The position numbers and the translations under genes are program-made. Under the pieces are notes generated by a model. The model worked only from the letters and a program-made list of their open reading frames with translations. It did not search any database and was not told where the DNA came from. Positions 3-10,698 of a stretch of 32,242 nucleotides of DNA are shown here, in pieces (the stretch's first letter is position 1; the number at the start of each line of letters is the position of its first letter). Origin of the DNA: an uncultured Candidatus Saccharibacteria bacterium (GTDB taxonomy: Bacteria > Patescibacteriota > UBA1384 > DATEAH01 > CAYPSR01); NCBI GenBank assembly GCA_964413595.1, contig CAYPSR010000003.1:7950-40191 (forward strand). Reading direction: 5' to 3'.

Positions 3-848
3 TTAGTTGCTTTAGCAATTGTTTTTTTAATTATATTTAAACTTAAGCCCGGATTAGATTTTTCAGGTGGAACTCTCTTGGAATTGGAATTTAAATCAAC
101 CGTTAAATCAGAACAAATTGAGAAAGTCTTAACAGATCATTCGATCAAAGGGTTCTTAATACAAAAAACAGGGGATAAATCTTATTTTATTAAATTTCCA
201 AACATTGAAAAAAGCACTATTACAAAAATAAAAAACGATATAAAAAATAAAATAGGGGATAATACTGAAAAAAAATTTGAAACGGTTGGACCAAGTGTAA
301 GCAAAGACTTAACTATTAGGTCTTATTGGTCGGTTGGGATTGCATCACTATTTATTATTTTATTTATTGCATATGCGTTTAGAAAAATTCCAAAACCAGC
401 AAACTCGTTTAGATTTGGTGTAAGCGCTGTTATCGCATTAATACATGATAGCTTATTGGTTTTGGGTTTGTTTGCGTTTTTGGGGCGTTACTATGGGGTA
501 GAGATTGATTCAATGTTTATAACGGCAATTTTAACTGTTTTAGGTTTCTCGGTTCATGATACAATTGTTGTTTTTGATAGAATTAGAGAAAACTTAATGA
601 ATAATCCTGATGATAGTTTTGATGAAAACGCTGGGAAAAGTTTAATTCAAACTATAGACAGATCACTTAATACATCACTTACCGTAATGATTGTTTTAGG
701 AAGTTTACTAATATTTGGAGGAGAATCAATCAGGTGGTTTAATGTGGCACTTCTAGCTGGTGTATTCTTCGGAACATATTCTTCAATATTTGTGGCAACT
801 CAGTTTCTAAGTTATTGGCAGAAATGGGTGGGGAATAAAGATAAATAG
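3..848 (+). CDS. secF: Protein translocase subunit SecF (5' end lies outside the window)
   Basis: Frame is open from base 3 and reads KPGLDFSGGT upstream of the track start. VGPSV, HD, and GFSVHDTIVVFDRIREN / RSLNTSLT are SecF motifs. Confidence 0.96.
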   Translation, partial: LVALAIVFLIIFKLKPGLDFSGGTLLELEFKSTVKSEQIEKVLTDHSIKGFLIQKTGDKSYFIKFPNIEKSTITKIKNDIKNKIGDNTEKKFETVGPSVSKDLTIRSYWSVGIASLFIILFIAYAFRKIPKPANSFRFGVSAVIALIHDSLLVLGLFAFLGRYYGVEIDSMFITAILTVLGFSVHDTIVVFDRIRENLMNNPDDSFDENAGKSLIQTIDRSLNTSLTVMIVLGSLLIFGGESIRWFNVALLAGVFFGTYSSIFVATQFLSYWQKWVGNKDK

Positions 849-1341
849 AAAATACGATAAATAGATAGAAAGATAAAATGTTCTAAAACCAAGAATCAAT
901 TAGGATTATGGGAAGCCCACCTTTTGTGTTTTTTAGACAACCGACATTGTGCGACACTATTGTTTAAGTAAATATTCAATAATTTTCGAAAATGACCTAT
1001 TTTGAGGTCTTTGAAATGGATGATTGATTTAATTTAATTATTTATTAAAAAAGGGGAATTAAAGATTAGAAATTCATTGTTAATTATTTGATTAAAATCT
1101 ATCATTATTATCAGCGTTTATTACATGTAATATGAACCTGGTTATTATTGTTTTAGCCTTAATAACTCTTAGTATATATATGTCGTAAAGCCTCCTGAGT
1201 TATAAAAAGTGATGGTTGATGTATGGTGTATTTGAATAGAACGCAAGTTCTTTTGTTTGCGTAACTAGAACACTACGATAAGATCTAGTTCTACTAGGTT
1301 GTTTGAATGATCTATCTATTAACAACATTAAAACTAACACT

Positions 1342-1369
1342 ATGTCGCATAAGATATAATGTGCGACCG
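1342..1369. other. dif-like tyrosine-recombinase (Xer) site candidate
   Basis: ATGTCGCATAA-GATATA-ATGTGCGACCG: 11-bp imperfect inverted arms around a 6-bp spacer. The left arm and spacer resemble the E. coli dif XerC arm GGTGCGCATAA-TGTATA. It lies where gene orientation converges. Confidence 0.6.
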
Positions 1370-1448
1370 ATTATAAATATGTGTAAACTAGCTTTTTAGT
1401 TATTCTGGTTTGAAGGAGAAGAATCTAGCGAACTAAACAAGCGTGTCT

Positions 1449-1630
1449 AATGGCTTAGAAGGTTTTTGGGGATATTTAAAAAGAAAACTTGTTGCTAAGG
1501 GTGGCATCAGGAAATCAAGACTTCATCTTTATCTTGGTGAATATGTTTGGCGATACAATCACAGACATTTAAATGTTAAAGAACAGACCAAATATTTACT
1601 AAATTTGGTGGCAAAAATCTAACTATACCC
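1449..1630 (+). mobile_element. IS1595-family transposase C-terminal remnant with probable right end
   Basis: 1449-1622 translates as NGLEGFWGYLKRKLVAKGGIRKSRLHLYLGEYVWRYNHR...*, matching the IS1595 (ISXO2-like) N-x2-E-x-F-W ... L-x-E-x2-W-R-Y-N-x-R pattern. It ends in ...CTAACTATACCC, a probable terminal repeat. The upstream part is missing. Confidence 0.85.
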
Positions 1631-1853
1631 TAAATTATTTATAAATTATTATAGTTTATTTTATATTTATATTTTATAGATAATTGACAACTTATTATTT
1701 GATGTTTATACAAAAAATAGTTTTAACTCCCCTATTTTTTGTTGTTGTGTCATCAATATTTTAAAATATAATAAAAAAGTATTAATTTAATGTCGCACAA
1801 CACCTTGCATTATTTTCAATAGATTCATCAAATACTATCTTATTAAATAACAA

Positions 1854-1889: not shown

Positions 1890-1964
1890 ATGATATACTT
1901 ATCAACTATATATTGTTATATCCCCTGTCGTACAAGTATTACCTTAATAATATAAATTACACTA

Positions 1965-2390
1965 TTAATGTTGATAGTGTTTTTGAAATTCTTGTTTTAA
2001 TAATAAATATCTTCTTTCTACACCTTGATAATATATTTTATTATCAGGATGATCGGAGTTAAGCATGGCATCTCTTGAAGCTTCTCCCTGTGTTTTAATT
2101 TTCAGCCTGCCTTCTTTAAATTGCCCATTTGTAAAATCTATTTCATCTCCGTTTGGGAGCTGGTTCCAATAGTGTCCTACATCATATGAAACTACAATTT
2201 TTCCACCACATATATCTTGAATAATTAAGGAGGTGGGCTCACATTGCCCTGCCGAAGGATTTTCTTCTGACCAATCTAAATAGCATGAAGTTTCTCTTGA
2301 CCAAGATTTTCTTAAAGCATCTGCTATTCTATTAAAAAATCCTTCCAATTCCCCTTTTTGAGTTTGGCTAAAATCAATTTTTTCAGTCAT
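1965..2390 (-). CDS. YunG-family protein
   Basis: WSRETS, NPSAGQC and HYWNQLPNGDEIDFTNGQF motifs as in YunG-like proteins; Cys/His/Asp are arranged like a possible catalytic triad. Confidence 0.7.
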   Translation of the reverse strand: MTEKIDFSQTQKGELEGFFNRIADALRKSWSRETSCYLDWSEENPSAGQCEPTSLIIQDICGGKIVVSYDVGHYWNQLPNGDEIDFTNGQFKEGRLKIKTQGEASRDAMLNSDHPDNKIYYQGVERRYLLLKQEFQKHYQH

Positions 2391-2402: not shown

Positions 2403-5400
2403 TTATTTATCCTCATCAATATGAATGGGTTTATTAGGTTCGATAATTGTTGGTTGAATTGAGGTGCCATCAGTATTTTTTACACTTGGTAGTTGTTCCT
2501 CAACTTTATCTGCTTCTGGTCTTTCAAATATATTAGGTAAAGATGCAGAAGGCTGTGGAGTTAACACGGAATTTTGCGGAATTATATTAGACTGAGATTT
2601 CTCGTTTGCACTCGAAATGACGTCGGGAGGAGTTGCTTGAGGCGTCTGATGAGCTATTTGATGGATATTTGAATTTATAGTTGGCTCTTCGTGAACTACG
2701 TTTTCTTGGTTGGCTGGAACCTCGTTAGCTTGATTAATTTCTAGAGGCTGTATTGCAACCGTGGAATCTTGCGAAATTATCTTTTCAGCATCTAATCTCG
2801 AGTCGCCTGCTGGCTTTTGAGGAGATTCCTCGCCGTCGCTCAAAATGACAGTACTTACAGGTTCCTCTTGATACCATCTTTCTCCTTCGCTATCAACATA
2901 TTCATACCAGCGTTTCCTATTTGCTCTTATTACCGCAGAGGGTCCTTTGCCTTTTTTCTTTTCTTGTTGTTCTGGTTCTGTTTTACCAGCCGGTGTTTGA
3001 TTATATTGTAATGATTCTTCAATCATTTTTTCAACTTCATCTCGTGGTTTAGTGTTATTTGTGCGTGAGTTTTCAATAATATGTGTTGAAAAAGATTGGT
3101 CAGCAGTAATTGGTGGTAAAGTAATTGCGGAAAACGCAGGTGATGTTACACCATCAATCGACATTTTTACATAAATGTGAAATTTGTCTAAATTTATTAA
3201 ATCTGTTTCATCAAAAACTGGCGCCATTTCTTTGGCCAAATAAGGTGCGTCTTGAGCCCCAACTCTAAATGTAATTATTGTTCCAACATTGCCAAAAACA
3301 GCATCTCTTACCTCTTCTGGCATTTGTGCAATATATTGATTAGCAACTATAATCGACAATTTGTATTTTCGAGCTTCTGAAAAAATTGTTGCAAAACTCT
3401 CTGTGGCAAAATTTTGAAATTCATCAACATACATAAAGAAATCTTTTCTATCATCTTCATCCATGTATGCCCTATTCATTGCGGCTAGCTGAATTTTAGT
3501 AATTAACATGGCACCCAAAAGTGCTGAATTATCCTCACCTATTTTTCCTTTTGATAGATTAACAAGTAGGATTTTATTTCCGTTTATAATTTCATCTAAG
3601 TCAATTGTGCTTTTTGGTTGGCCAATAATATTTCTGATGATTGGAGATGATACAAATTGACCAACTTTGTTTTGGATTGGAGCAATTGCCTCGCTTCGCA
3701 GTTTGTCATTATATCCTTCAAATTCTTTTGTCCAAAACTCTCTAATTACTGGGTCTTGAATAGTATCAACAACAGATTGCCTGAAGGTTTTATCTGATAA
3801 AATTCTAAGAATATCAATCATGGTAGAGTTTGGGTAATCCATGAGCGCCATAATTGCATTTCTTAAAATATGTTCTAATCTTGGTCCCCAAGTAAACGCC
3901 CAAATCTTTTGAAATATTCCAATCATACCTGAGACAACAAGTGTTTTCATTTCTGGATTAATATTTTCAAGTAAATTAAATCCTATTGGATGTTCTGCAT
4001 CGGATGGATCAAAAATAACTACATCTTTAATTCTGTGTTCAGGGATGTTTTTTAAAACCCGCTCGTATGGATCACCATGAGGATCTATAAAGGCAATTCC
4101 ACGACCCTCTCTAATATCATCCATTGCCATGTTTTCTAGCATTGTAGATTTACCAACACCTGTTTTACCAACAACATAGGTATGTTTTCTCCGATCGTCT
4201 GTTTTAATACCAAAATCAATTACTGCATTTCTAAAATCAGTTTTTGCAAAAACTGTTAATTCATCTGCTGGAACTTTACCTTTTATTGGTAAATTAGATG
4301 GAGACTCTCCGCGCTTACTTCCCGCCCAGACAATGTTCGGTGTTTCAACAGTTACAGAAGGTAGATGAAAAATAGATGCAAGCTCTTCAATATTTAAAAT
4401 ATAAGCATTTTTATCAATTGCCCTGGTTTTATAATCAGAAATAGCGCCAATATCGTTTATGGAAATATTTTTAACAACAAAACCATTTTGGTTTGTGGTT
4501 GTAAATTGTTTAAAAACTCCAGCAAGATTTTGGAGCTTGTTTCTTGCGTCTTCAGCTGTGTTTGAAACAACGGCTAAGCGCATTTTTGTTTTATAACCCA
4601 AAAGCGTTGTTTTTGTTTCTATTGCTTTTAAAGCTTCTTCTAAAGTTGACGGAAGTTCTGGTTTTTCATCACTTTTTTCAGTCATTTCTTTTTGGTATTC
4701 GGGATTCATAATAGTCTTTACAAGATCTTTCCCGAGTTCTAGTGTTCCAGATGCGATTGCCTTTCCAAAACCACCATTTTTGGATTTGCCACTTCTGACA
4801 GAATCAACATAAGAGTTTCCGTCTTGTGTCCATTCGTCTGATGCTGGTTCAATAACTATTTGAATCCATAGATTTTCAAAATCTTGAGACTCTGTTAAGG
4901 CAGAAGTAATTCCAGCCAAAGGATCAACTTCAAAATTTGGAAAAGTTTTGATTGGATAAAACTGCTCTTTTGTTAGTTCTACATCAGCAGTTGCAACAAC
5001 TTTTTGTTCTAAATTGATATTATTTGTATAATCTTCAACTGTTTGAATAGAGACTTTTGGATACTGCGCATATATTTGTCCTTCTATATAACTCTTTAAA
5101 GTTTCTGGGACGTATGCATAAAAACGAATACTTTTTTCAGAAGATATAATTTCAAAAGACAAATGTTCTTGAATTCTCTCGTGAAATTTTACTTCATGTG
5201 GATCACGATAAATTCCATGAATTGCAGCAAACATTTGCTGGGCTGCTAGCGGAGTTTTGTCGTTGTCTTTTGGAACATCAATTTGTAATAAAAGATATTT
5301 TTTATTATCTACGACTTGAGATTTCTTTTTATTTTTTAAAGTTTGATAAATAAAAAAAATAATACCGATTACACCAGCAACAATAACGATCCATATAATT

Positions 5401-5405
5401 GTCAT
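2403..5405 (-). CDS. Membrane-anchored TrwB/VirD4/HerA-superfamily ATPase (CPR type IV secretion-like), copy B with long disordered C-tail
   Basis: N-terminal TM helix, Walker A GKTGVGKST, IDPHGD, Walker B FMYVDEFQNF, SEARKY, NQYIAQ. Start moved to ATG 5405 because an extended -10 lies 6 nt upstream and the track's TTG start overlaps it. Confidence 0.88.
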   Translation of the reverse strand: MTIIWIVIVAGVIGIIFFIYQTLKNKKKSQVVDNKKYLLLQIDVPKDNDKTPLAAQQMFAAIHGIYRDPHEVKFHERIQEHLSFEIISSEKSIRFYAYVPETLKSYIEGQIYAQYPKVSIQTVEDYTNNINLEQKVVATADVELTKEQFYPIKTFPNFEVDPLAGITSALTESQDFENLWIQIVIEPASDEWTQDGNSYVDSVRSGKSKNGGFGKAIASGTLELGKDLVKTIMNPEYQKEMTEKSDEKPELPSTLEEALKAIETKTTLLGYKTKMRLAVVSNTAEDARNKLQNLAGVFKQFTTTNQNGFVVKNISINDIGAISDYKTRAIDKNAYILNIEELASIFHLPSVTVETPNIVWAGSKRGESPSNLPIKGKVPADELTVFAKTDFRNAVIDFGIKTDDRRKHTYVVGKTGVGKSTMLENMAMDDIREGRGIAFIDPHGDPYERVLKNIPEHRIKDVVIFDPSDAEHPIGFNLLENINPEMKTLVVSGMIGIFQKIWAFTWGPRLEHILRNAIMALMDYPNSTMIDILRILSDKTFRQSVVDTIQDPVIREFWTKEFEGYNDKLRSEAIAPIQNKVGQFVSSPIIRNIIGQPKSTIDLDEIINGNKILLVNLSKGKIGEDNSALLGAMLITKIQLAAMNRAYMDEDDRKDFFMYVDEFQNFATESFATIFSEARKYKLSIIVANQYIAQMPEEVRDAVFGNVGTIITFRVGAQDAPYLAKEMAPVFDETDLINLDKFHIYVKMSIDGVTSPAFSAITLPPITADQSFSTHIIENSRTNNTKPRDEVEKMIEESLQYNQTPAGKTEPEQQEKKKGKGPSAVIRANRKRWYEYVDSEGERWYQEEPVSTVILSDGEESPQKPAGDSRLDAEKIISQDSTVAIQPLEINQANEVPANQENVVHEEPTINSNIHQIAHQTPQATPPDVISSANEKSQSNIIPQNSVLTPQPSASLPNIFERPEADKVEEQLPSVKNTDGTSIQPTIIEPNKPIHIDEDK
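2594..2621 (-). repeat. 28-bp dispersed palindromic repeat, in-frame within ATPase
   Basis: GTCATTTCGAGTGCAAACGAGAAATCTC; 25/28 identical to the intergenic copy at 12877-12904. Confidence 0.85.
2822..2849 (-). repeat. 28-bp dispersed palindromic repeat, second in-frame copy within ATPase
   Basis: GTCATTTTGAGCGACGGCGAGGAATCTC; same ends and length as the other copies. Confidence 0.75.
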
Positions 5406-5459
5406 AATTAGATAGTACCAGAATGATGTCAAAATAATCTCCTTTTTATAATAAAATTT

Positions 5460-7685: not shown

Positions 7686-8228
7686 TTAGTTAACTGGTAT
7701 TATATTTTCTATCGCTGCATGTTTGCAATTATTGTTTTTTGCTACAATAATAGTTGCCTCATCTCCTTCTTTGGCTTTAAAATATGAAAGCGAGGCTTTT
7801 AAAAGATTATAATATTTGCCCTCACAATATGCACAAAGGTCATTGTTCTTTTTTTTGATCTGAGCCAACTTTGTTTCTCTTTCAATTGGTTCGATTTGTT
7901 TGAATATAAATGATCCGTCAGCGGTTATAATAAGCTTTAATATATCGCCTTCAACTAGCTTTGATTTAGAGGCATAATTTTCAGGTACGCTGAATTTTCT
8001 TTTGTTTTTATCAATTAGGTGTTGACCATTATATATGCCTTCAACAATTTGTACAAAACCATTATTATCGGATTCTTGATGATTATTTGAGCTGTAATAA
8101 AAACTTTTCCTATTTGATGGATTTTTGGACATTAATTTTTCCGCTTTTTCAAGCAGACTATTAGCTTTTTCAATCATCTTTTGAGCTTTTTCAAACTCTG
8201 CTTTCTGGTGATTCAATTGATCCTCCAT
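7686..8228 (-). CDS. Conserved CPR-type hypothetical protein (coiled coil + beta-rich domain)
   Basis: VPENYASKSKLVEGDILKL...DGSFIFKQI motif, recalled from uncharacterised CPR proteins; overlaps the upstream ATPase by 38 nt. Confidence 0.75.
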   Translation of the reverse strand: MEDQLNHQKAEFEKAQKMIEKANSLLEKAEKLMSKNPSNRKSFYYSSNNHQESDNNGFVQIVEGIYNGQHLIDKNKRKFSVPENYASKSKLVEGDILKLIITADGSFIFKQIEPIERETKLAQIKKKNNDLCAYCEGKYYNLLKASLSYFKAKEGDEATIIVAKNNNCKHAAIENIIPVN

Positions 8229-10698
8229 CCATTGGAATTTGACTTAAATCGCCTTTTTCCAATATTTTCTTTTCAACTGCTTCTCTGTGTTGACCATATT
8301 TTAATCTTGATAGTTGTATTATTTTGTCTCCCTTGTCCCTTTCCATTGGAATTGAATCTTTAATAGTTCTCATTGAAAAAGGATTAGAGGCAACCCCATC
8401 GATTAAAAGTTTTACATAGCAGTGGTATTTATCAACATTGATTAGATCTTCTTGATCAAAAACCGGCGCGTATTCTTTGGCAACATAATCAGCATCTTGC
8501 GCGCCAATTCTAAAACAAGCTAATGTTCCAATATTTCCAAAAACTGAATCGCGTATTTGTTCTGGAAGTTGAGCAATGTATTGATTGGTGATATTTAAAT
8601 TCAAACGATATTTTCTTGCTTCAGACAGGATTTGTGAAAAAGTATCTGTTGCAAAATTTTGGAACTCATCAACGTATAAATAAAAGTCTCTTCTTTGACC
8701 CTCTGGAATATCAGCGCGACTCATCGCCGCGGCTTGCAGTTTAGTTACTAAAATCATTCCCAAGAGATTTGAATTTATCTCGCCTATTTCGCCCTTTGAC
8801 AGATTGACTAATAATATTTTCCCTTCATCCATTATTTTTCTAAAATCAAATCCAGACTTTGCTTGGCCAATAATATTTCTCATCATTTCATTTGAAATAA
8901 AGCGTCCAAACTTTGATGTAAAATAATTAAGCATTTCTGATTTATGGAAATCAGCGGTTTGAGCAATTTGTTTTTGCCAGAACTGAACAACCTGTGGATC
9001 TTTGACATGTTTAATCATTTCTTCCATGTATGGCTTATCAATAAAAAGACGCGGAATATCAATTAATGTTCCGCCATCAGGATGGCTCATGACAGTAAGC
9101 GCAGCATTTCGCATCCAATGTTCCCATTGAGGGCCAACAATACCAGTTTTGTTTGGATCAAAAAGTTTGTAAAAAATTTGTATTGCTTCTTGAATTAAAA
9201 AGTCTTTTTGCTCAACTGTTCTCCATTCGAGCAAGTTTAAACCCATTGGGCGCTCAGTGTCAAAAGGATTAAAATAAATTACATCTTCTGCGCGCTCAGG
9301 CGGAATCTTTTGTAAAATATCTTCAACGGTATCCCCGTGAGGATCTAAATAGCATGCTCCTTTACCGCTTAAAATATCAGACATTATCATTGAAACAAAT
9401 AATGTTGATTTTCCAACGCCAGTCTTCCCTATTGCGTATAGATGTTTTCTTCTATCATCGTCTTTGATTCTAATTTGTCGTCTCTCGCCTCTAAAAATAC
9501 TTTCACCAATTATAAGACCTTCATTTGGAATGTTAGAGGGTGGCGCTGCATCTTTAGCAGCAAGCCAATTGATATTTGGAGTTTCGACAGTTGAATTTGG
9601 AAAATGATAAATTGATGCAATTTCCTCAGCATTTAAAGTCATAGATGAATCATCGCCATATGTTCTTAGCGCGTAGTCTGTTAATAATTCAGCTTTATTT
9701 TTAGGTTTGGTTTTAGCAAAAAGATTAAGTTCTGGATTAGAAAACTGTGAATAACTCGCGAGAATATTTGCACTTTGAGCTTCTGCTTCTTCGAGAGTGG
9801 GACAAGCAGTGATTATTCTTACTTTGGCATCAAAACCAACTTTGGAAATTTTTTCAGAAATTGATCGCATAAGATTTTCTTCAATTGGAGATACCTGGTG
9901 TGGTTTTTCATCTTCTGATTTAAGTTCTTTGCCAGCAGCGACTTTCGAGATATCTTTTGCAAGTCCTGACATTCCTTTAAATATTTTTGATCCTCCTCCT
10001 CCAAACATTGCTACATCTTTTCCGGACTGGATATCTTCAATTGCACTTTGTCCGGATTTTCGCCATGAGCTATCTTTCGGCCTAATCAATATTTGGATTA
10101 CACCAACAGAGTTATCGCCAAGTTTTGATAAAGCATTTGTTATTAATGATAATGGATCTGATTCTAAATAACGATAAGTTTTAATTGGTAACATTTCTTT
10201 TTTGGCAAGTTTTAATCCTGCAACTGCAATTTGTTGGTTTTCCGTAAAAGGATTATAATAAGGAACTTTTTCAACTAATGCTCCTGGATATTGAGCATGA
10301 ACTTGTTTTTCAACAAGGGATGAAAATTCATTCGGACAACTAACGTAAAAATTGATTTGTCCATCAACGGTTGCGATTTCAAAAGTTATATGGGGTTGAC
10401 CTACCATTTTTTGTTTCCACTCATCATTATATAAGCTAGAAAAAGAAGCGATCATTTGTTCAAATACGCCAACTAGTAATACAGATAATTCTTTTGAGTC
10501 TTTAATTTCTTCTTCTTTTTTTCCAGATCTTTTTGGTACTTTTATTAAAAACATCGTTCGTTTTAGGGCATTAGCTTTTTGGTGTTTTTTAGCCTTGTCT
10601 TTTTTATACATATTCCAACTAGAAATAGCCAAGGCTGCTCCAAGAATAATAGCAAATATGATAATAATTGTTGGTAGGTTGTTTAGAAAAAAATTCAT
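8191..10698 (-). CDS. Membrane-anchored TrwB/VirD4/HerA-superfamily ATPase, copy A
   Basis: N-terminal TM helix, Walker A GKTGVGKST, LDPHGD, Walker B YLYVDEFQNF, SEARKY, NQYIAQ; paralogous to 2403-5405 along its length. Confidence 0.9.
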   Translation of the reverse strand: MNFFLNNLPTIIIIFAIILGAALAISSWNMYKKDKAKKHQKANALKRTMFLIKVPKRSGKKEEEIKDSKELSVLLVGVFEQMIASFSSLYNDEWKQKMVGQPHITFEIATVDGQINFYVSCPNEFSSLVEKQVHAQYPGALVEKVPYYNPFTENQQIAVAGLKLAKKEMLPIKTYRYLESDPLSLITNALSKLGDNSVGVIQILIRPKDSSWRKSGQSAIEDIQSGKDVAMFGGGGSKIFKGMSGLAKDISKVAAGKELKSEDEKPHQVSPIEENLMRSISEKISKVGFDAKVRIITACPTLEEAEAQSANILASYSQFSNPELNLFAKTKPKNKAELLTDYALRTYGDDSSMTLNAEEIASIYHFPNSTVETPNINWLAAKDAAPPSNIPNEGLIIGESIFRGERRQIRIKDDDRRKHLYAIGKTGVGKSTLFVSMIMSDILSGKGACYLDPHGDTVEDILQKIPPERAEDVIYFNPFDTERPMGLNLLEWRTVEQKDFLIQEAIQIFYKLFDPNKTGIVGPQWEHWMRNAALTVMSHPDGGTLIDIPRLFIDKPYMEEMIKHVKDPQVVQFWQKQIAQTADFHKSEMLNYFTSKFGRFISNEMMRNIIGQAKSGFDFRKIMDEGKILLVNLSKGEIGEINSNLLGMILVTKLQAAAMSRADIPEGQRRDFYLYVDEFQNFATDTFSQILSEARKYRLNLNITNQYIAQLPEQIRDSVFGNIGTLACFRIGAQDADYVAKEYAPVFDQEDLINVDKYHCYVKLLIDGVASNPFSMRTIKDSIPMERDKGDKIIQLSRLKYGQHREAVEKKILEKGDLSQIPMDGGSIESPESRV

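Follow-up and report, generated by a model that had tools for sequence, protein, structure and literature searches.

A probable chromosomal dif site with inverted arms at a gene-orientation convergence point in an uncultured Candidatus Saccharibacteria bacterium

Introduction

What is the short, nearly symmetric sequence that lies where two opposed sets of genes meet in the genome of an uncultured Candidatus Saccharibacteria bacterium, and is it the site at which the dimers of its chromosome are resolved? The sequence is 28 bp long and was found in a stretch of 32,242 nucleotides (G000:C3:7950-40191), which as a whole is referred to below as the window. The source genome, G000, comprises 980 kb in 102 contigs and is 93% complete.

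A site of this kind is of practical interest: most genomes of Patescibacteria, or CPR bacteria, are fragmented metagenome assemblies, in which a marker of the terminus that occurs once per genome is useful. Such a dif marker can serve as an anchor for checking and orienting assemblies, for the placement of replichores, and as a landmark for estimates of replication rate from read depth. The original prediction stated that no characterised dif was known for this lineage, and a search of the open literature, supplements and subscription journals aside, likewise returned no paper on a dif site of Patescibacteria/CPR.

The 28-mer is, with high confidence, the chromosomal dif site of this lineage. 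It belongs to a known kind of site (Xer/dif), of which the copy in this lineage is a new instance, and dif sites are an expected kind of terminus marker in CPR-type genomes. The dif site itself is unsurprising; the only unusual part of the locus is a set of single, polar arms that flank it.

Anatomy of the 28-bp site

The site and its parts occupy the following positions of the window:

1342 to 1369, no strand assigned: the 28-bp dif site, consisting of left arm ATGTCGCATAA, central region GATATA, and right arm ATGTGCGACCG
1342 to 1352: left arm
1353 to 1358: central region GATATA
1359 to 1369: right arm

Two imperfect inverted arms of about 11 bp, separated by a 6-bp central region, are the feature by which dif sites are recognised, and the 28-mer possesses both elements. 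The window sequence reads GTCGCA at 1344-1349 and its complement TGCGAC at 1362-1367, and 7 of the 11 positions of the left arm match the reverse-complemented right arm. The 11-6-11 arrangement with GTCGCA in both arms, as originally proposed, is therefore confirmed by the sequence at 1342-1369. Searching the window for GTCGCA-N12-TGCGAC with at most one mismatch gives a single match, against 0.01 expected from 100 shuffles of the window.

Aligned copies from the class yield the consensus ATGTCGCACAA-TGTATC-TTGTGCGACAT, in which the arms are identical and form a perfect palindrome. Copies in relatives read ...GCATAA-TGTATG-TTATGC..., and the inner base of the right arm in G000 is A, not T. Established dif sites share this inner arm sequence (...ATAA / TTAT...) and a TGTATA-like centre. 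The dif of Escherichia coli, as printed in Kono et al. 2011 (PMC3025954), a paper earlier than these genomes, has an XerC arm that ends CGCATAA, in agreement with the original prediction; the 28-mer shares 15 of 28 positions with that printed sequence, including CGCATAA and four of the six central bases.

A single copy, conserved across the phylum

Relatives were scanned with the pattern GTCGCAYAA-N6-WTRTGCGAC, allowing at most two mismatches, and the reversed pattern was used as a control. Two samples were covered: 61 genomes of the class (G000 included) and 201 genomes of the phylum, each at least 90% complete. The full site occurs once in the 980 kb of G000, where the reversed control finds nothing. 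It is present in 43 of the 61 class genomes, nearly always once per genome, and the reversed control matches few genomes; in the phylum sample it is present in 115 of the 201, again nearly always as one copy each. One copy per chromosome, as expected of dif, is thus seen in G000, in most relatives, and in the 768-kb contig G026:C1. The wider form of the motif originally put forward for such a scan (TGTCGCAYAA-N6-WTRTGCGAC) has, on these counts, a conserved and mostly single-copy counterpart in relatives; a motif scattered through the genome or absent from related genomes would have spoken against a dif site, and neither pattern is seen.

At up to two mismatches, the pattern has no match in 18 of the 61 class genomes and in 86 of the 201 phylum genomes. 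In three of four such class genomes that were inspected (G002, G012, and G035), however, a diverged copy lies downstream of secF, and since the copy is in place in these, the actual coverage of the class exceeds 43 of 61.

A scan with the exact pattern was extended to the genomes of 185,579 species and returned at least 120 stretches, of which 80 records were classed by their titles. Among these matches listed, the names belong to the Patescibacteria group in 42 records and to archaea in 16 (Poseidoniales in 11 of these), and the other 22 have different or unspecific names. The form GTCGCAYAA-N6-TTRTGCGAC stands at archaeal-named loci L085, L104, L105, L111, L118, L130, L149, L151, L161-L163, and others. 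Records with Chloroflexi-type and actinobacterial names, also among the matches listed, carry the same site.

Position at the convergence of gene strands and at the GC-skew maximum

The genes around the site, all in window coordinates, are as follows:

3 to 848, plus strand: 3' part of secF, last gene of the left plus-strand replichore (SecD_SecF_C, E 3.8e-53)
1437 to 1622, plus strand: remnant of an IS1595/ISXO2-type transposase, its last 61 residues, outside the dif mechanism
1965 to 2390, minus strand: YunG-family gene, first gene of the right, minus-strand side (PF24585, E 9e-27)
2403 to 5432, minus strand: gene for a 1009-aa VirD4/TrwB-like coupling ATPase, whose place beside dif is conserved in the class
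8191 to 10698, minus strand: gene for another VirD4/TrwB-like ATPase (835 aa), which accompanies the first in relatives

The site sits in a gap of 1116 bases between secF on the plus strand and the YunG-family gene on the minus strand. This gap had been described as 1.1 kb of non-coding DNA; the length is right, but the gap holds the 61-residue transposase tail. Rfam and tRNA scans of the window detected no RNA genes.

Over contig C3 as a whole, the left 8.8 kb contain ORFs on the plus strand only and have a GC skew of +0.16 to +0.28, and on the right side the ORFs are mostly on the minus strand and the skew is mostly negative. The cumulative GC skew of C3 peaks at 9-10 kb, which corresponds to 1-2 kb of the window, that is, at the site. 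The meeting of plus-strand genes with mostly minus-strand genes is accordingly upheld on the full contig, and the change from G-rich to C-rich sequence, at first judged by eye, is borne out as a computed inversion of skew with its cumulative maximum at the site. The original prediction called its own skew argument weak, with a single gene visible on the left; on the full contig, the argument holds over the 8.8-kb left flank. The terminus of G000 cannot be placed on the whole chromosome because the genome is in 102 contigs. Runs of 100 N, representing scaffold gaps, border the window on both sides (G000:C3:7850-7949 and 40192-40291), the left one lying within the secD/secF frame.

The flanks were also compared across 20 class genomes, with 10 kb taken on each side of the site; one locus had no right flank. 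To the left of the site, the nearest ORFs are on the plus strand in all 20 genomes, and to the right they are on the minus strand in all 19 for which this flank is available, so that plus- and minus-strand genes converge at the site in each of these 19. In 18 of the 20 genomes, the 10-kb flank on the left has the higher GC skew, and in L031 and L035 it is the one on the right; a strict inversion of sign, positive on the left and negative on the right over the same flanks, occurs in just 9 of 20.

Two long contigs were rebuilt for a view at chromosome scale, one of 768,650 bp (G026:C1) and one of 671,273 bp from a genome of about 900 kb (G058:C1):

G026:C1: one site, at 437,060; GC-skew maximum at 436,201; coding-strand maximum in the ORF at 435,881-436,807; skew minimum at 765,899
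G058:C1: one site, at 144,120; GC-skew maximum at 41,678; coding-strand maximum in the ORF at 142,412-143,314; skew minimum at 518,122

In G026:C1, the site lies 0.9 kb from the global maximum of cumulative GC skew and adjoins the coding-strand maximum, and all measures there are consistent with the terminus lying at the site. The site of G058:C1 likewise adjoins the coding-strand maximum and a sustained fall in skew begins there, but the cumulative skew maximum is 102 kb away; this contig supports the terminus reading only partly. The site thus stands at the shift point of GC skew, the skew maximum of G058:C1 being the exception. Between that maximum and dif, at about 40-80 kb of G058:C1, lies a stretch of about 40 kb with opposite GC skew and mixed gene orientation, which could be an inversion or inserted DNA.

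Conserved neighbours and gene-linked explanations

One side of the site is occupied in most of the 20 relatives by secD-secF, in some cases with a DUF1290 gene after it, and the other by two VirD4/TrwB-like ATPase genes, of about 900-1100 aa and about 800 aa. The layout of the window is the same, with secF on one side and the ATPase genes at 2403-5432 and 8191-10698 on the other. With a neighbourhood as constant as this, the conservation of the site could partly reflect a role linked to these genes, and synteny is the main reason for weighing an operator, an attachment site, or a transfer origin against a dif site.

An operator would be a palindromic site for a regulator of secDF or of the VirD4-like genes, conserved along with them, and the recurrence of the same neighbours (secF with or without the DUF1290 gene, and the larger, 900-1100-aa ATPase) in most of the 20 relatives is what such a role predicts. 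The site, however, is downstream of both convergent genes and upstream of neither, and it is kept at the convergence point in L027, L031, and L041, where one of the usual neighbours has been replaced. An operator also leaves the match to dif in geometry, inner arm, and central bases unaccounted for, as it does the occurrence of the same site across the phylum and, among the matches listed, under archaeal names. Such a role is very unlikely.

The presence of two genes for coupling-protein-like ATPases beside the site could instead point to a mobile element that carries VirD4-like genes, with the 28-mer as its attachment site or transfer origin; the extra single arms and the transposase remnant do resemble traces of mobile DNA. 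Against this, genomes carry the 28-mer singly and not as a pair at the two ends of an island, the site in G026:C1 falls at the global maximum of both skew and coding strand, and the ATPase genes keep the same place in at least 20 families, in the manner of core genes and not of an island. A mobile origin for the site is highly improbable.

It is barely credible that the sequence acts solely at the RNA level, as a hairpin that terminates transcription from both of the convergent genes. The region does fold into a hairpin of eight pairs (-10.5 kcal/mol, z -3.26) at a suitable place between convergent genes, but it has no T run, and a terminator scan of 800-2050 reports 0 sites. Unlike terminators, moreover, the site keeps its primary sequence across the phylum, including the loop formed by the central region, and it is unique in a genome with many convergent gene pairs.

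A pair of VirD4/TrwB-like ATPases directly beside the terminus, opposite secDF, recurs in most of the 20 class genomes (L023-L042). A type IV secretion system of Patescibacteria is reportedly treated in a preprint (10.1101/2025.01.22.634366).

The Xer recombinase and FtsK

A dif site calls for a cognate recombinase of the Xer family of tyrosine recombinases, and G000 encodes a candidate. Two tyrosine recombinase genes are present, encoding proteins of 359 aa (contig C36) and 270 aa (contig C26), and it is the 359-aa protein on C36 that is identified here as the Xer-like recombinase whose identification had been proposed as a check of the site. It comprises Phage_integrase and SAM-like domains and scores 241 bits against XerC (cut-off 335) and 233 bits against XerD (cut-off 330), below both thresholds, but 234.7 bits against the NCBIfam model XerA_Arch, above the cut-off of 220. 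Its best solved relatives are the XerA proteins of Pyrococcus abyssi (4a8e, E 1.4e-40) and Thermoplasma acidophilum (5hxy), with E. coli XerD ranking behind both structures. The alignment to 4a8e spans the conserved motifs, HxLRH and the region of the C-terminal Tyr among them.

An ortholog of the 359-aa protein, with 45-64% identity, is found in 61 of 61 class genomes. A second gene, with roughly 32-37% identity to the 359-aa query, occurs in only 11 of the 61, G000 counted, so that 50 of the 61 have a single Xer-type gene by this query. Two paralogs acting on two different arms, as in XerC/XerD systems, are hence not the pattern of the class: 50 of 61 genomes have the single gene, and the arms of the consensus are identical. 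The suggestion that near-symmetric arms would suit a single-recombinase system fits the class, where one Xer gene is universal and most genomes have no second; G000 itself does have a second Xer-like gene. This 270-aa paralog on C26 is sporadically distributed in the class, and G000 might use a two-protein reaction.

The recombinase gene lies apart from the site. In G000, xer is on contig C36 and dif on C3, whose 44.6 kb contain no xer; the distance between them is 229 kb in G026 (665,824 versus 437,060) and 370 kb in G058. An arrangement of the XerS/difSL type, with the recombinase gene beside the site, is thus not found.

In six genomes (G007, G029, G047, G024, G049, and G033), the match to the Xer ortholog falls into two parts inside a single open frame; a few dozen residues appear to have been inserted in the protein near position 215-220.

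The genome also encodes FtsK, a protein of 689 aa on contig C11 with 4TM, alpha, motor, and gamma domains. When 7- and 8-mers in G026:C1 and G058:C1 were ranked by leading-strand bias, no KOPS-like polar word directed towards the site emerged: biases were weak, and no 8-mer was common to both contigs. The few 7-mers common to both were considered as KOPS and rejected, as they resemble coding-strand purine effects.

Proposed mechanism

In the proposed reaction, the two copies of the site on a replicated chromosome dimer would meet at the division septum. Each arm would be bound by one monomer of the conserved 359-aa Xer-type recombinase, and the four monomers, acting as a homo-tetramer, would carry out strand exchange where the arms meet the 6-base central region, the presumed positions of cleavage, and thereby convert the dimer into two monomers. 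FtsK, which has a gamma domain, would probably deliver the sites and activate the reaction, as it does in other bacteria. A defined 28-mer and a defined 359-aa protein lend themselves to a simple biochemical test of these steps.

Comparison with known Xer systems

The site resembles that of the XerC/XerD systems of E. coli and Bacillus subtilis in being a 28-bp site present once per chromosome, at the terminus, in a host whose FtsK has a gamma domain. It differs in that the arms are alike, in that most class genomes have one Xer gene, and in that the recombinase falls below the equivalog cut-offs for XerC and XerD.

Likeness is closer to the archaeal XerA/dif systems of Pyrococcus, Thermococcus, and Thermoplasma, in which one recombinase acts on an 11-6-11 site with near-identical arms. 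The 359-aa protein passes the XerA_Arch threshold and has archaeal XerA proteins as its nearest structures. P. abyssi XerA works without a partner in vitro (PMC2958812), and according to the same paper (Cortez et al. 2010), archaeal dif sites agree with the bacterial consensus at 14-18 of 28 positions and are not adjacent to xerA; the xer gene is similarly remote from dif here, as in G026. Of the 28 positions of the class consensus, 17 are the same in the dif of Thermococcus kodakarensis as given in PMC11840125, and the 24-mer pattern recurs in the 16 archaeal-named records of the 80 among the matches listed. The host, in contrast, is a bacterium that has a full FtsK, gamma domain included. 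Judged by sequence, this is an Xer/dif system whose closest counterpart is the single-protein XerA type, though its bacterial host has retained FtsK-gamma.

Single-recombinase systems are also known in bacteria. One is XerS/difSL of streptococci and lactococci, in which difSL is longer than the canonical site, asymmetric, and located beside xerS. The present site, by contrast, has the canonical length of 28 bp, and its xer gene lies on another contig in G000 and at a great distance from dif in G026 and G058. A second is XerH/difH of Helicobacter and Campylobacter (PMC3325230). Both share with the present system the use of one recombinase in a bacterial host (review PMC5357621), but the matches of the 359-aa protein to XerS (127 bits) and XerH (48 bits) are far weaker than those to XerA, XerC, and XerD. 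Smyshlyaev et al. (10.1101/542381) describe a 'Cand' subgroup of simple tyrosine recombinases that are related to Xer and confined to candidate phyla. The 359-aa protein is probably a member; the passages of the preprint that describe the subgroup name no target site.

These comparisons point to a single-recombinase, near-palindromic Xer/dif system in bacteria that, by sequence, is closest to archaeal XerA/dif, and they bear on the relation between one-protein and two-protein Xer systems.

Single arms flanking the probable dif site

Besides the two arms of dif, the gap contains further copies of the arm sequence:

947 to 956, minus strand: extra single arm TGTCGCACAA, followed by TGT, left of dif
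930 to 946: outer side of this arm, a degenerate partner arm, with which it forms the degenerate site TTTTTAGACAA-CCGACA-TTGTGCGACAC
1790 to 1800, plus strand: extra single arm ATGTCGCACAA, right of dif, with no recognisable partner arm
1926 to 1935, plus strand: weaker arm-like copy TGTCGTACAA, with one mismatch

The TGT that follows the arm at 947-956 is the start of the consensus central region. The word TGTCGCAYAA has four copies in the 980 kb of G000, three of which lie in this one gap (947-956 on the minus strand, the left arm of dif, and 1791-1800 on the plus strand). The copy at 1926-1935 could be due to chance, the background of one-mismatch copies being about 0.08 per kb. A sister genus (G001) keeps both the left arm (-412, minus strand) and the right arm (+236, plus strand), although the rest of the gap no longer aligns. 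Single arms near dif also occur in relatives L026, L028, L029, L031, L038, and L015, often together with the first three bases of the central region.

Extra arms were tallied in 22 class genomes within 3 kb of dif, 132 kb in total. Nine are exact, five on the minus strand to the left of dif and four on the plus strand to the right, with none on the plus strand to the left or the minus strand to the right; mirror-image polarity is thus seen in 9 of 9. With one mismatch allowed, the corresponding counts are 10 and 10, against one on the left in plus orientation and three on the right in minus orientation. Exact arms in the background number one in the 768,650 bp of G026:C1 outside dif and five in the 671,273 bp of G058:C1 with any in dif counted, from which about half a copy would be expected in the 132 kb searched. 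A wider set of 80 named loci, from the phylum and outside it, has 14 exact extra arms with a more even distribution (left minus 3, left plus 5, right minus 2, right plus 4): seven fit the mirror-image polarity and seven do not, the relatives compared being non-independent.

Several origins for the arms were considered. The transposase remnant in the gap matches the last 39 positions of the DDE_Tnp_IS1595 profile (E 9.4e-4, 19.7 bits, missing the cut-off of 27), and no full copy of its transposase exists in G000. Similar remnants occur in G003, G010, and G014 alone among 60 other genomes, and none is accompanied by dif arms; the arms were accordingly rejected as ends of an IS1595-type element. 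It is next to impossible that the whole locus is a junction of two abutting IS or MITE ends (947...1352 and 1359...1800) resembling dif arms by chance: the four arm copies would fit a pair of elements with inverted ends, separated by 6 bases, the second of which encloses the transposase remnant, but neither segment has further copies in the genome, the related remnants elsewhere lack such ends, and relatives such as G026 hold the full site with no flanking arms.

Simple scars of Xer-exploiting mobile elements (IMEX) were likewise rejected for the class. As derived in this analysis, a circle with one good arm that integrates into dif leaves an arm in plus orientation on the left or in minus orientation on the right, the opposite of the five left-minus and four right-plus arms observed. 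Given the mixed polarity across the phylum and the opposite polarity in the class, such scars may explain the arms of some lineages but not of this one. This leaves two readings of the arms, as scars of Xer-mediated events more complex than these or as functional half-sites for Xer.

For the second of these, a parallel may exist in the XDS of B. subtilis, dif-like sequences in the terminus at which XerD unloads SMC (Karaboja et al. 2021, as cited in PMC11840125 and PMC12322038); these are additional sequences near dif that bind Xer but do not recombine. The SMC hinge family (PF06470), the one family searched, is found, however, in 0 of 31 class genomes (G000-G030; 27 of them with completeness of at least 90% and contamination of no more than 5%); the same search finds it in 10 of 14 reference genomes. 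With the hinge family absent from all 31, unloading of SMC in the manner of XDS is an unlikely function for the arms. That they are working Xer-binding half-sites, which form a polar device around the terminus distinct from the Bacillus XDS, is a tentative reading and a rather doubtful one; such a device might act, for example, as a stop for FtsK or for replication forks, or as an aid to synapsis. A number of the arms fall within ORFs: one is in secF, and the majority are towards the 3' end of the ATPase gene, on its antisense strand.
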